This document shows positions 20,101 to 20,476 of a stretch of 64,000 nucleotides of DNA, in pieces (within the stretch, counting starts at the first letter, position 1; each line of letters starts with the position of its first letter). Under the pieces are notes generated by a model that had not been told where the DNA came from, made no database searches, and saw nothing but the letters and a program-made list of their open reading frames with translations. This DNA is from Patescibacteria group bacterium (GTDB lineage: Bacteria; Patescibacteriota; Saccharimonadia; Saccharimonadales; 2-12-FULL-41-12). The translations under genes and the position numbers were made by a program. The DNA lies in the NCBI GenBank assembly GCA_038064875.1, contig JBBTSC010000001.1:635004-699003 (forward strand), given 5' to 3'.

Positions 20101-20190
20101 GGAGAGGTGTCCGAGTGGTTTAAGGAACTTGTCTTGAAAACAAGCGTGTCGGAAACGATACCGTGGGTTCGAATCCCACCCTCTCCGCCA
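20101..20190 (+). tRNA. tRNA-Ser (anticodon UGA), class II, encoded CCA
   Basis: GGAGAGGTGTCCGAGTGGTTTAAGGAACTTGTCTTGAAAACAAG...GTGGGTTCGAATCCCACCCTCTCCGCCA. The anticodon loop is CTTGAAA. Confidence 0.92.
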
Positions 20191-20200
20191 GTATGTACAA

Positions 20201-20223
20201 CCCGATCCTTGTGATCGGGTTTT
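20201..20223 (+). terminator. Rho-independent terminator after tRNA-Ser(UGA)
   Basis: CCCGATC, loop cttgt, GATCGGG, followed by TTTT. Confidence 0.7.
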
Positions 20224-20367
20224 CATACTGCTGAATTGGTGTGAATTTGAACCCACGGGTGATGGCTTTAGCCAGCACGAACCGTGGTGTTCGGTGAAGA
20301 CTTGCAAAGAAAAGAAAGCACCGAAGGTATTTTCTTTTCGGGCAAGTCGGAGAAGGGCTTGTCCGCT

Positions 20368-20385
20368 ATCCCACCCTCTCCGCCA
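20368..20385 (+). repeat. 18-nt exact direct repeat of the tRNA-Ser(UGA) 3' end (att-like)
   Basis: ATCCCACCCTCTCCGCCA occurs at 20173..20190 (tRNA 3' end) and again at 20368..20385. Confidence 0.9.
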
Positions 20386-20393
20386 TGAAAATA

Positions 20394-20416
20394 GTCGAGC
20401 TATGCTCGGCTTTTTT
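20394..20416 (+). terminator. Rho-independent terminator after the repeated tRNA 3' end
   Basis: GTCGAGC, loop tat, GCTCGGC, followed by TTTTTT. Confidence 0.65.
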
Positions 20417-20476
20417 CATGCTTGGTGTAGATTTGACCGCATGAGAATTGCCCCGGCCCAATGCTAAAATAAGGGT

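Follow-up and report, generated by a model that had tools for sequence, protein, structure and literature searches.

Introduction

Why does the 3' end of an intact tRNA-Ser(UGA) gene recur a short way downstream, beyond an insert dense in hairpins, in a Saccharibacteria genome? An earlier note on this DNA had offered two readings: a footprint of integrase-mediated insertion, and a small RNA that mimics the 3' end of a tRNA. We examined the locus within the window, i.e. the whole stretch of 64,000 nucleotides that was analysed, and compared it with about 6-7 related Saccharibacteria loci. Our tentative answer is that the unit is a dispensable scar of site-specific recombination targeted to the T-loop of tRNA-Ser and remodelled into palindromes.

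Repeats, terminators and tails

The last 18 nt of the tRNA (ATCCCACCCTCTCCGCCA) were repeated exactly, as the earlier note had described (20173-20190 and 20368-20385, 18/18, 195 bp apart). Only these two occurrences were found in the 64 kb with 3 mismatches allowed, against a chance expectation of 0.01. The features of the locus, with the method that identified each, are as follows.

20062-20090, plus strand: promoter-like site of the tRNA gene, TAGAAA-17-TATAAT (10/12 matches)
20101-20190, plus strand: tRNA-Ser(UGA) gene, CCA encoded (ARAGORN; Rfam RF00005, 60.4 bits)
20173-20190, plus strand: repeat copy 1, T-loop A59 through CCA, the final 18 nt of the tRNA (sequence repeat search)
20191-20228, plus strand: terminator 1, GTATG...CCCGATC-CTTGT-GATCGGG-TTTT-CATAC (minimum-free-energy fold; conserved with a compensatory change)
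20238-20258, minus strand: tail 1, decayed inverted copy of tRNA positions 61-80, reading CCGTGGGTTCAAATTCACACC on the minus strand (Smith-Waterman score 25)
20247-20294, plus strand: hairpin 1, inverted copy paired with the direct partial copy, inner TGGC-TTTA-GCCA (minimum-free-energy folds)
20277-20293, plus strand: direct partial copy of tRNA positions 55-71, ACGAACCGTGGTGTTCG (score 22, reached by 3-4 of 300 shuffles)
20299-20348, plus strand: hairpin 2, GACTTGC...GAAAAGAAAG...TTTTCTTTTC...GCAAGTC (minimum-free-energy folds)
20349-20381, plus strand: hairpin 3, formed by GGAGAAGGG, which copies a short stretch of the acceptor 3' strand in inverted orientation, and CCCTCTCC of repeat copy 2 (sequence; minimum-free-energy folds)
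20368-20385, plus strand: repeat copy 2, 18/18 (sequence repeat search)
20384-20420, both strands: terminator 2, palindrome CATGAAAA-TAG-TCGAGC-TAT-GCTCGG-C-TTTTTTCATG (inverted repeat; terminator scan)
20422-20441, minus strand: tail 2, shorter and more decayed, TTGGTGTAGATTTGACCGCA (80% identity to tail 1)
20441-20470, plus strand: promoter-like site for the following gene, with extended -10 TGCTAAAAT (promoter scan)
20477-20995, plus strand: 5-formyltetrahydrofolate cyclo-ligase gene, context (PF01812 on the product and all homologues)

ARAGORN and Rfam both called a complete tRNA-Ser(UGA), so an intact gene stands at one junction, as at an attachment site. Repeat copy 2 is preceded by CCGCT in place of the TTCGA of the tRNA. 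The repeated span began within the T-loop and ended exactly at CCA, both in the window (18/18) and in the related locus L006 (21/21). A partial direct copy at 20277-20293 had been overlooked in the earlier note. Together with 20368-20385 it makes up tRNA positions 55-90, with the T-loop split by 74 nt. The duplicated part of the tRNA was confined to these positions, i.e. the 3'-terminal third, and no part of the insert resembled the 5' two thirds of tRNA-Ser UGA, CGA or GCU. In the window this third was copied twice in direct orientation, at 20277-20293 and 20368-20385, and two or three times in inverted orientation, at 20238-20258, roughly 20349-20357 and roughly 20424-20441. A hidden tRNA, tmRNA or tRNA pseudogene was rejected on either strand: ARAGORN called none, and similarity to the 5' two thirds of tRNA-Ser was absent.

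Each repeat copy was followed by a terminator hairpin of its own, again in agreement with the earlier note, terminator 1 being recognised by its fold and terminator 2 by the scan. The terminator 1 hairpin (20201-20219, followed by TTTT) formed a 9-bp stem in the fold and received no call from the simple terminator scan. In L004 and L343 it carried a compensatory pair change (CCCAATC/GATTGGG), with 38 of 38 positions identical between these two loci; it is the predicted functional terminator of the tRNA gene. Terminator 2 was called on the plus strand (stem 20393-20411 with a T6 run) and on the minus strand (20408-20396), and could be aligned with the terminator 3' of the tRNA-Ser(CGA) gene of L006. 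The flanks of both terminators were extended into palindromes, GTATG/CATAC and CATGAAAA/TTTTCATG.

The tails after the two terminators were similar, as previously claimed (20236-20255 and 20422-20441, 80% identical). It had been overlooked that both tails copy the 3' part of the tRNA in inverted orientation. The Smith-Waterman score of tail 1 was reached by 0 of 300 shuffles (14.2 ± 2.1), and equivalent inverted copies were found in L213 (score 27), at tRNA-Ser(CGA) of L011 (24-29), in L006 (20) and in L005 (20). Tail 2 could be aligned with the L006 tail GGTGGTAGATTTGAACCCGAG. The inverted copy just 3' of the terminator was the most widely conserved feature of the unit. It is specific to the clade: among 111 unrelated occurrences of this tRNA end, a single one had an inverted copy scoring at least 20.

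The right-hand limit of this patchwork was the promoter-like site at 20441-20470. Its TGCTAAAAT stops 6 nt short of the ATG at 20477, which suggests that the cyclo-ligase mRNA is leaderless or near-leaderless. CCAATGCTAAAAT was kept in L004 and L213, immediately 3' of their decayed repeats, and the promoter-like sequence of the tRNA gene was kept in L004, L006, L213 and L214. The promoter scan gave no plus-strand site upstream of the insert. ORFs in the region were spurious only, overlapping the tRNA and the hairpins between the repeats, and a small ORF was rejected on these grounds. The 177-bp insert and the second tRNA end are most likely non-coding, dispensable DNA. The unit has no known present work beyond that of the terminators, which separate the tRNA gene from the next gene.

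Comparison with related loci

A search of genome contigs with the cyclo-ligase protein returned no relative, a genome search by tRNA pattern returned two genomes only, and a metagenome protein-alignment scan was swamped by distant homologues, the motif GFGGGFYD being universal. The same arrangement was found in four independent assemblies from other samples (L001 and L215-L217), with 4 substitutions in 316 nt, and is therefore not an assembly artefact.

The layout of tRNA-Ser, terminator, inverted copy, variable hairpins and direct repeat was also present in four other species. It is clade-wide and occurs at other tRNA-Ser genes too, a point absent from the earlier note. In L006, the 21/21 repeat copied the adjacent tRNA-Ser(CGA) gene (CCCTCCC) and not the UGA gene; since it matches the CGA gene that precedes it, the repeat tracks the gene it follows. 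The CGA gene of L006 is intact, with this 21-nt repeat 177 bp downstream, and there is also a decayed repeat of UGA type.

In L011, all three tRNA-Ser genes were flanked alike, by CCA-TAGTAAAAGGA...TCCTTTTACTATG(G)CG around different stems; the construction was absent at tRNA-Arg and tRNA-Gly. The L011 palindrome was perfect over 24 nt, including TCCGCCA/TGGCGGA. At tRNA-Ser(CGA) of L011, in a different gene context, an inverted copy and hairpins were followed by a decayed repeat 172 bp downstream. The tRNA-Ser(UGA) gene of L011, also in another gene context, had no repeat.

Other relatives showed decay or loss. L004 lacked about 90 nt of the interior as well as terminator 2, and its counterpart of repeat copy 2 matched at 15/18; in L213 the repeat was reduced to ATCCCACCC (9-10 nt). 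L343 had no tail, insert or repeat: terminator 1 was kept and was followed directly by the promoter. Upstream of the tRNA, L004 carried a further 183-nt element of similar build, hairpin-rich and with closing-stem inverted repeats. More distant Saccharibacteria (L338-L341) had 0-30 nt upstream of the cyclo-ligase gene.

Unit length in four species was 195, 177, 177 and 172 bp. The interiors could not be aligned, and every one was built of strong hairpins. The window, L006, L213 and L011 shared an architecture and a size of 172-195 bp. Folds of L006 and L213 had a closing stem, formed by tail and repeat, that enclosed 2-4 hairpins. No tail-repeat stem was used in the window fold, where the acceptor complement has been lost from tail 1.

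Folding and structured-RNA searches

All stems named in the earlier note were recovered in the sequence and in the minimum-free-energy fold, and the complementary 7-mers of its possible pseudoknot, TTCGGTG (20290-20296) and CACCGAA (20319-20325), were present. A 230-nt fold reached -99.4 kcal/mol (z = -9.1 on the plus strand and -8.8 on the minus strand); the interior alone gave z = -4.2. The four most stable of 913 overlapping 140-nt windows tiling the 64 kb all fell at 20091-20440, with -52.8 to -66.8 kcal/mol against a 64-kb mean of -28.3 ± 6.8. The first half of hairpin 1 was kept in L004 and L005. Hairpin 2 had no tRNA similarity, no homologue in the relatives and no other copy in the 64-kb window, and in strains L216 and L217 the change T20302G broke one of its pairs with no compensation.

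The proposal of a tRNA-3'-mimicking small RNA was not supported. The acceptor-like helix GGAGAAGGG/CCCTCTCC, with a free GCCA, can form in the window fold, and this helix of hairpin 3 was absent in L004, L006 and L213. No 5' strand of a T-arm precedes copy 2, whose left flank is CTTGTCCGCT. There was no ARAGORN or Rfam call, no consensus structure and no plus-strand promoter-like site. The covariance-model scan that the earlier note had suggested found no Rfam family at threshold in the insert region. Covariation across homologues was likewise not seen: for the three full-length units (window, L006 and L213), RNAalifold returned a consensus of -1.8 kcal/mol with no covariation term.

A broader possibility, which we consider unlikely, is that tRNA-Ser genes carry a functional module, lineage-specific and acting either as a structured RNA or in cis. 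As a read-through 3' trailer or insulator, its tail would pair with the tRNA 3' end and its hairpins would block transcription into the next gene; as a minus-strand small RNA, it would share the bidirectional terminator and carry tRNA-like ends. The fold is the most stable in the window (z = -9 on both strands), and architecture and size (172-195 bp) recur in four loci despite unalignable interiors. In L011 the flanks of the terminators are invariant while the stems covary, and the clade-specificity of the inverted copy (1/111) points the same way. However, the insert sits behind a good terminator and has no plus-strand promoter-like site, and neither consensus structure nor covariation was found. 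Neither the acceptor-like helix nor the closing stem is conserved, the window fold itself lacking a tail-repeat stem; each inverted or tRNA-like copy has decayed differently; and L004 has a truncated unit and L343 none.

Matches to sX4 (RF02223), an expressed Xanthomonas small RNA, bear on the same possibility. sX4 has the same order of parts (tRNA-Ser-like sequence, hairpin, downstream complement), and weak matches with this layout were seen in the window, L004, L006 and L213, the tail being aligned to the downstream complement of the model. These matches were below threshold (19-32 bits against a gathering threshold of 70), and those of 25-32 bits drew mostly on the tRNA part. The match is carried by the tRNA itself, and Xanthomonas is unrelated to these organisms.

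The position upstream of a cyclo-ligase gene raised a further candidate, a divergent 6S RNA (SsrS). The linkage of 6S RNA to ygfA is documented (PMC9130861), the downstream gene here is a PF01812 member, and about 170 nt between terminators together with high structure would fit the length and strong structure of RF00013. Against this, no match to RF00013 or another 6S model was found at E <= 10 in the window, L004, L005, L006 or L213. The hairpins lie side by side in the window, and the fold is branched in L006 and L213; a rod with a large central bubble is formed in none of them. L004 and L343 have lost the unit, the distant Saccharibacteria leave only 0-30 nt upstream of the cyclo-ligase gene, and the module travels with tRNA-Ser, as in L011, and not with the cyclo-ligase gene. 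With no model match, the wrong fold, no conservation in relatives and a linkage to tRNA-Ser, 6S RNA was rejected as extremely improbable. Also rejected was control of the cyclo-ligase gene by a riboswitch or attenuator that would use terminator 2 as its expression platform: no terminator follows the repeat in L004, L006 or L213, the promoter ending 6 nt from the ATG leaves no leader, and there was no THF or other riboswitch match.

Origin of the unit

The integration footprint proposed in the earlier note was partly supported, as the better of its two readings. Consistent with it are a repeat that runs from T-loop to CCA, the 21/21 match of the L006 repeat to the preceding tRNA-Ser(CGA) gene, the restriction of copying to the 3' terminus of the tRNA, the decay in L004 and L213, and L343, which is without the unit. 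A full island, an integrase and a clean site-specific empty site were not found. The search for a full island with integrase covered L004-L006, L011, L213 and L343. A CIME-like remnant lacks the recombinase gene by definition, but no parent element was found in these relatives. Neither the locus nor a set of 15 ORFs of the window scanned against Pfam showed an integrase or other mobile-element gene, and none of these 15 is a candidate for an integrase acting in trans. L343 does lack the unit, as an empty site should; however, it keeps terminator 1 and is not the predicted attB, because the integration model makes terminator 1 element-derived. Since terminator 1 is retained, L343 looks like the result of an ordinary deletion rather than an excision product.

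The same 18-mer was found at many IMG/VR provirus contig ends, which indicates that bacterial elements commonly attach at this end of tRNA-Ser. The insert, tails, junctions and terminator modules of the relatives gave no phage, plasmid or viral match in IMG/VR, INPHARED or PLSDB. A degenerate-base tail pattern matched unrelated gut-phage contigs and was uninformative.

We infer an integrase as the source of the unit, and the order of events, as follows. In this Saccharibacteria lineage, tRNA-Ser genes would have undergone site-specific recombination at their T-loop. An integrating element would have brought a tRNA 3' end and a terminator. At one junction it would have rebuilt the tRNA gene; at the other, the original 3' end, now displaced, would have remained with its own terminator and become the direct repeat. 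The element may then have been reduced to about 180-195 bp by tandem or repeated events, by loss of any internal genes and by palindrome growth around hairpins. Under this scheme the excision joint, with the tRNA joined to terminator 2, would read ...GGTTCGAATCCCACCCTCTCCGCCATGAAAATAGTCGAGC and the circular joint ...CTTGTCCGCTATCCCACCCTCTCCGCCAGTATGTACAAC.

The two 18-mers are identical and the terminators that follow them are unrelated, which would argue against simple tandem duplication with drift. Local replication errors without a recombinase are an alternative that we consider improbable. Template switching at a terminator hairpin would produce an inverted tRNA 3' copy, a second switch at the next hairpin a direct copy, and indels would follow. 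The copies do alternate direct, inverted, direct, and the partners of each inverted/direct pair face each other as hairpin arms, in terminator 1, hairpin 1 and hairpin 3. The L011 palindrome extends unbroken from the TCCGCCA of the tRNA through the terminator to TGGCGGA, the flanks of both terminators have grown into palindromes, and the integrase and island of the integration reading were not found. However, the direct repeat of L006 is a perfect CGA copy but its tail is of UGA type (CCACC), so the repeat is not simply the complement of the tail. The construction occurs at the three tRNA-Ser genes of L011 and not at tRNA-Arg or tRNA-Gly, which would need repeated coincidence or spread, and unrelated terminators after identical 18-mers are unexpected from one local duplication.

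Alternatively, a tandem tRNA-Ser(CGA) gene, intact in L006, could once have stood here and been destroyed except for its 3' end, which would survive as copy 2 with its own terminator and tail. Repeat 2, terminator 2 and tail 2 of the window can be aligned with the 3' end, terminator and tail of the L006 tRNA-Ser(CGA) gene; the first and second tRNA ends are separated by 195 bp in the window and by 199 bp in L006; and 20277-20293 and 20368-20385 jointly cover tRNA positions 55-90. We nonetheless judge this very doubtful. No remnant of the 5' two thirds of any tRNA-Ser was found, and the two 3' pieces are separated by 74 nt. L006 has its 21-nt repeat 177 bp downstream and its decayed UGA-type repeat despite an intact CGA gene, so the repeats arise independently of gene loss.

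Recombination at the tRNA-Ser T-loop remains our tentative preference, with two features set apart from it. The inverted tRNA-end copy right after the terminator is not predicted by integration and is unexplained, and the constant size of 172-195 bp with hairpin-only interiors looks more constrained than random decay. Because the inverted copies and the constant size are unexplained, a small mobile element or a structured RNA is kept under consideration.

Comparison with known systems

The closest parallels are the direct repeats of tRNA and tmRNA 3' ends that integrating elements leave behind, among them tandem arrays and cis-mobilizable elements without genes (PMC3146451; reviewed in PMC5704250). 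Repeats of 18-21 nt that start in the T-loop and reach the 3' end of the gene, and a gene that stays intact, are common to both, as are more than one repeat or unit per locus, variable content between repeats and decay that differs between relatives. In Dehalococcoides ssrA, 20-bp repeats, an insertion point midway in the T-loop and tandem islands have been described (PMC3146451). The attP core of the mycobacteriophage Ms6 (PMC1762012) has the integration geometry seen here: an identity block over the tRNA 3' end, with exchange in the T-loop. Ms6, however, is a phage that has an integrase as well as a defined attP, whereas the present locus shows the footprint only. The known integrating elements are kilobases long or adjoin integrase modules; here the unit is 172-195 bp, with no gene and no integrase found. 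The inverted tRNA-end copies present here are not described for integrating-element repeats.

A second comparison is by size and shape, with small palindromic or MITE-like repeats. Correia, ERIC and Rickettsia palindromic elements are non-coding and hairpin-rich, measure about 100-200 bp, have terminal inverted repeats as a closing stem, and vary in presence between relatives; these families are multi-copy and dispersed. By description, the present unit resembles them in size, closing stem, hairpins and non-coding content, and it has terminal inverted repeats, the tail and the repeat being inverted copies of the same tRNA segment. It differs in that it is tied to tRNA-Ser genes and its ends derive from the tRNA. 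No second copy of the unit was found in the 64-kb window; related modules stand at three tRNA-Ser genes of L011. TGAA stands at both ends of the tail-to-repeat segment in the window (20232-20235 and 20386-20389); nothing comparable was seen in L006 or L213.

The unit could belong to an undescribed family of about 170-195-bp gene-less elements specific to Saccharibacteria tRNA-Ser genes, bounded by inverted and direct copies of the tRNA 3' end around a fast-evolving, hairpin-only interior. Its members would be attP-sized mobile units moved in trans by a tRNA-Ser T-loop recombinase, or structured RNA or DNA modules under selection for shape and not for sequence. We regard such a family as unlikely. 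If it exists, the constant size, the clade-wide inverted copy and the extreme stability would be functional constraints and not accidents.

Significance

If the unit is only a scar, it is a compact record of tRNA-Ser genes as recombination hot spots even in the very small, mobile-element-poor genomes of Saccharibacteria. It would then also be a warning for annotation that not every highly structured intergenic stretch beside a tRNA gene, or upstream of a 6S-linked cyclo-ligase gene, is an RNA gene. We know of almost no non-coding elements described in this phylum. If the size and the inverted copies reflect function, the unit would be a new tRNA-linked mini-element or RNA module.

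Direct and inverted copies of the tRNA-Ser(UGA) 3' end

The host of the window is a Saccharibacteria (TM7) member: the best matches of the flanking proteins are Candidatus Saccharibacteria MAGs, and groundwater contigs carry genes identical to those flanking the patchwork of tail, hairpins and repeat downstream of tRNA-Ser(UGA). The tRNA gene is preceded by a promoter-like site, TAGAAA-17-TATAAT. Its last 18 nt (20173-20190) were found again exactly at 20368-20385, confirming the arrangement reported in the earlier note, in which each copy has its own terminator and a similar tail (20236-20255 and 20422-20441; 80% alike). 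With up to three mismatches allowed, there was no third match to the 18-mer in 64 kb (0.01 matches expected by chance). Four independent assemblies of near-identical strains showed the same arrangement.

20101-20190, plus strand: tRNA-Ser(UGA), called by ARAGORN and Rfam
20201-20223: terminator 1, terminator-type hairpin after the first copy, CCCGATC-CTTGT-GATCGGG-TTTT
20393-20416: terminator 2, terminator-type hairpin after the second copy, AGTCGAGC-TAT-GCTCGGCT-TTTTT

When both strands of the region downstream of tRNA-Ser(UGA) were aligned with the gene itself, tail 1 proved to be a decayed inverted copy of tRNA positions 61-80 (CCGTGGGTTCAAATTCACACC on the minus strand versus CCGTGGGTTCGAATCCCACC in the tRNA; alignment score 25, shuffles 14.2 ± 2.1, 0/300 as high). 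Positions 55-71 were copied once more, in direct orientation, at 20277-20293; this segment and the 18-nt repeat between them cover tRNA positions 55-90, with a 74-nt interruption in the T-loop. In the acceptor-like helix described previously, the partner strand GGAGAAGGG (20349-20357) likewise proved to be a short inverted copy, here of the acceptor 3' strand. Because tail 1, 20277-20293 and 20349-20357 are all copies of the tRNA 3' end, the insert is, as judged from its sequence, a chain of such fragments in alternating orientation. The hairpin arms are inverted/direct pairs of tRNA fragments, hairpin 2 (20299-20348) being the only hairpin with no tRNA similarity. The insert contained nothing similar to the 5' two thirds of any tRNA-Ser, no substantial ORF and no Rfam family, and had no second copy within the 64-kb window.

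Related loci

Six species-level relatives were reached via homologues of two flanking proteins, and L011, a more distant Saccharibacteria genome, by a tRNA pattern scan; the comparison rests on about seven related loci, a thin evidence base. The common order was tRNA-Ser, terminator, inverted tRNA 3'-end copy, variable hairpins, direct tRNA 3'-end repeat and the promoter of the next gene. Unit lengths were 195, 177, 177 and 172 bp, with unalignable interiors.

L006: tRNA-Ser(UGA), decayed repeat, intact tRNA-Ser(CGA), terminator, tail, ~100 nt of hairpins, 21/21 repeat of the CGA gene end (CGAATCCCTCCCTCTCCGCCA)
L213: inverted copy 20/22, two different long hairpins, repeat reduced to ATCCCACCC
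L004: terminator 1 and tail 1 90% identical to the window, repeat 15/18; ~90 nt of the interior lost, together with the whole of terminator 2 and tail 2
L005: tail and the beginning of hairpin 1; the next ~650 bp contain a Crp-type HTH fragment and a small membrane ORF
L343: tRNA end and terminator 1 (38/38 identical to L004), then promoter and ATG at once; no tail, insert or repeat
L011: invariant flanks CCA-TAGTAAAAGGA...TCCTTTTACTATG(G)CG around differing stems at 3/3 tRNA-Ser genes (UGA, CGA, GCU)
L011, 7700-7775, 1600-1675 and 5590-5670, minus strand: tRNA-Ser terminator flanks

The inner stems in L011 differ with compensatory changes, and the palindrome takes in the tRNA's own CCA/TGG. 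At tRNA-Ser(CGA) it extends into TGGCGGA and a decayed inverted T-arm, followed by hairpins and, 172 bp downstream from the gene's own copy of the motif, by TCCCACTCTC. Nothing similar was seen at tRNA-Arg and tRNA-Gly of L011, or at tRNA-Arg and tRNA-Ser(GCU) of the window. As a control, 111 unrelated occurrences of the 18-mer in IMG/VR contigs were scored for an inverted copy; only one had a copy scoring at least 20 within 150 nt, which marks the inverted copy as a feature of the clade rather than of this tRNA in general.

An alternative, itself very improbable, is that the second copy in the window is the remaining stump of a tandem tRNA-Ser(CGA) gene that was once present. The second repeat, terminator 2 and tail 2 align with the L006 CGA gene end at comparable spacing (195 bp in the window vs 199 bp), but no 5' gene remnant is present and L006 has both an intact CGA gene and a further repeat, which weakens this origin.

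L004 also has a 183-nt insert (3541-3723) that separates the tRNA-Ser promoter (-10 TATAAT) from the 5' end of the tRNA and has no counterpart in the window, L006 or L213. In its fold (-74.6 kcal/mol, z = -7.2) a closing stem of 15 bp encloses two hairpins. The right end, CTGGTGTGAGG, is similar to the tail TTGGTGTGAAT, and the insert may represent another palindromic mini-element at this tRNA. Many independent metagenome contigs begin or end within the tRNA-Ser gene, mostly at the T-arm (L001:1, L005:1, L216:1, L217:1, L343:1 and the ends of L214 and L212), suggesting that its 3' half is repeated elsewhere in the genomes or population-variable, breaking assemblies.

Folding of the unit

The 230 nt after the tRNA gave fold z-scores of -9.1 (plus strand) and -8.8 (minus strand), and the four most stable of 913 overlapping 140-nt windows across the 64 kb all lay at the patchwork. 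The three full-length units (window, L006, L213) were alignable at their ends only, and their consensus fold reached -1.8 kcal/mol with no covariation term. In L006 and L213, tail and repeat form a closing stem around 3-4 hairpins; this stem is absent from the window fold because the window tail has lost the acceptor complement. Near-identical strains differ by four substitutions, and T20302G disrupts a hairpin 2 pair without compensation. On the plus strand, the insert has no promoter-like site ahead of it. Consensus fold, substitution and promoter search thus leave the small tRNA-3'-mimicking RNA of the earlier note unsupported, and a functional structured module or small RNA appears unlikely.

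Sub-threshold matches to Rfam sX4 (RF02223, a Xanthomonas sRNA; 19-32 bits vs a gathering score of 70) ran across tRNA-Ser, terminator and tail. The sX4 model itself resembles a tRNA-Ser(CGA) with the complement of its own 3' end placed downstream.

Window 20092-20264; L004:3716-3870; L006:3696-3848; L213:2323-2470: sX4 sub-threshold matches

The cyclo-ligase gene and other features of the window

The gene after the patchwork encodes 5-formyltetrahydrofolate cyclo-ligase (PF01812), to which the 6S RNA gene is classically linked (PMC9130861). As a 6S RNA, the patchwork failed on model, fold, conservation and gene context: the 6S model had no match at E <= 10 in five loci; the folds are side-by-side hairpins, branched in L006 and L213, with no rods; L004 and L343 carry deletions of the unit; in more distant Saccharibacteria the cyclo-ligase gene has no spacer ahead of it; and the L011 module adjoins tRNA-Ser genes, apart from that gene. 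At 20441-20479, the cyclo-ligase extended -10 TGCTAAAAT ends 6 nt ahead of the ATG, leaving no Shine-Dalgarno spacing, which suggests a leaderless mRNA; L004, L213 and L343 share this arrangement.

1095-4999: PrgI-family protein (4007-4999, minus) beside large ORFs 1095-3020 and 3020-3997 (minus), likely belonging to a type IV secretion or conjugation-like cluster
17010-18200, minus: 396-aa ORF with no Pfam match
18052-20064, plus: 670-aa trypsin-like protease ORF
42001-44000: G+C 0.344 vs ~0.42 elsewhere, around a 742-aa ORF (42760-44988, plus) and a lysyl-phosphatidylglycerol-synthase-like ORF (41763-42650, minus)

The 396-aa ORF overlaps the first 150 nt of the protease ORF on the opposite strand, so the start of one or the other has probably been misassigned.

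Proposed recombination at the tRNA-Ser T-loop

We tentatively read the patchwork as the scar of site-specific T-loop recombination at tRNA-Ser, a reading that falls a little short of probable. Integration there would leave a direct repeat starting in the T-loop and ending at CCA, as the repeat does. Such integration also fits the restriction of copying to 3'-terminal tRNA sequence, the L006 repeat that tracks its adjacent tRNA, the unrelated terminators after identical 18-mers and the presence of the unit at several tRNA-Ser genes. Many provirus contigs in IMG/VR carry this 18-mer at an end. The decay and loss seen in relatives are consistent with non-functional DNA. The T-loop repeat geometry is shared with mycobacteriophage Ms6, a known T-loop integration case (PMC1762012), and with the tandem ssrA islands of Dehalococcoides, where the repeats measure 20 bp, the insertion point is mid-T-loop and derivatives that are gene-less and cis-mobilizable occur (PMC3146451).

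The integration footprint proposed in the earlier note was supported by repeat geometry, 3'-end copying and decay, but not by machinery: neither an integrase nor an island turned up at the locus, among 15 window ORFs or in any relative, and viral, phage and plasmid collections gave no match. Nor is L343, which lacks the unit, the predicted empty attachment site, since it retains terminator 1. Integration leaves unexplained the inverted copy directly behind the terminator, and constant unit length and exceptional hairpin content fit a scar poorly. These observations keep alive the tandem-gene stump, the functional module or small RNA, and palindrome growth by template switching with no recombinase, itself rather improbable. 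We also give a low probability to a gene-less tRNA-Ser-specific mini-element or shape-selected module.

The patchwork is a lineage-specific, tRNA-Ser-linked set of hairpins and tRNA 3'-end copies, the latter in both direct and inverted orientation, and is more elaborate than first described. It is dispensable, shows no conservation of RNA structure, and is best classed with tRNA attachment-site scars as an unusual variant in miniature.
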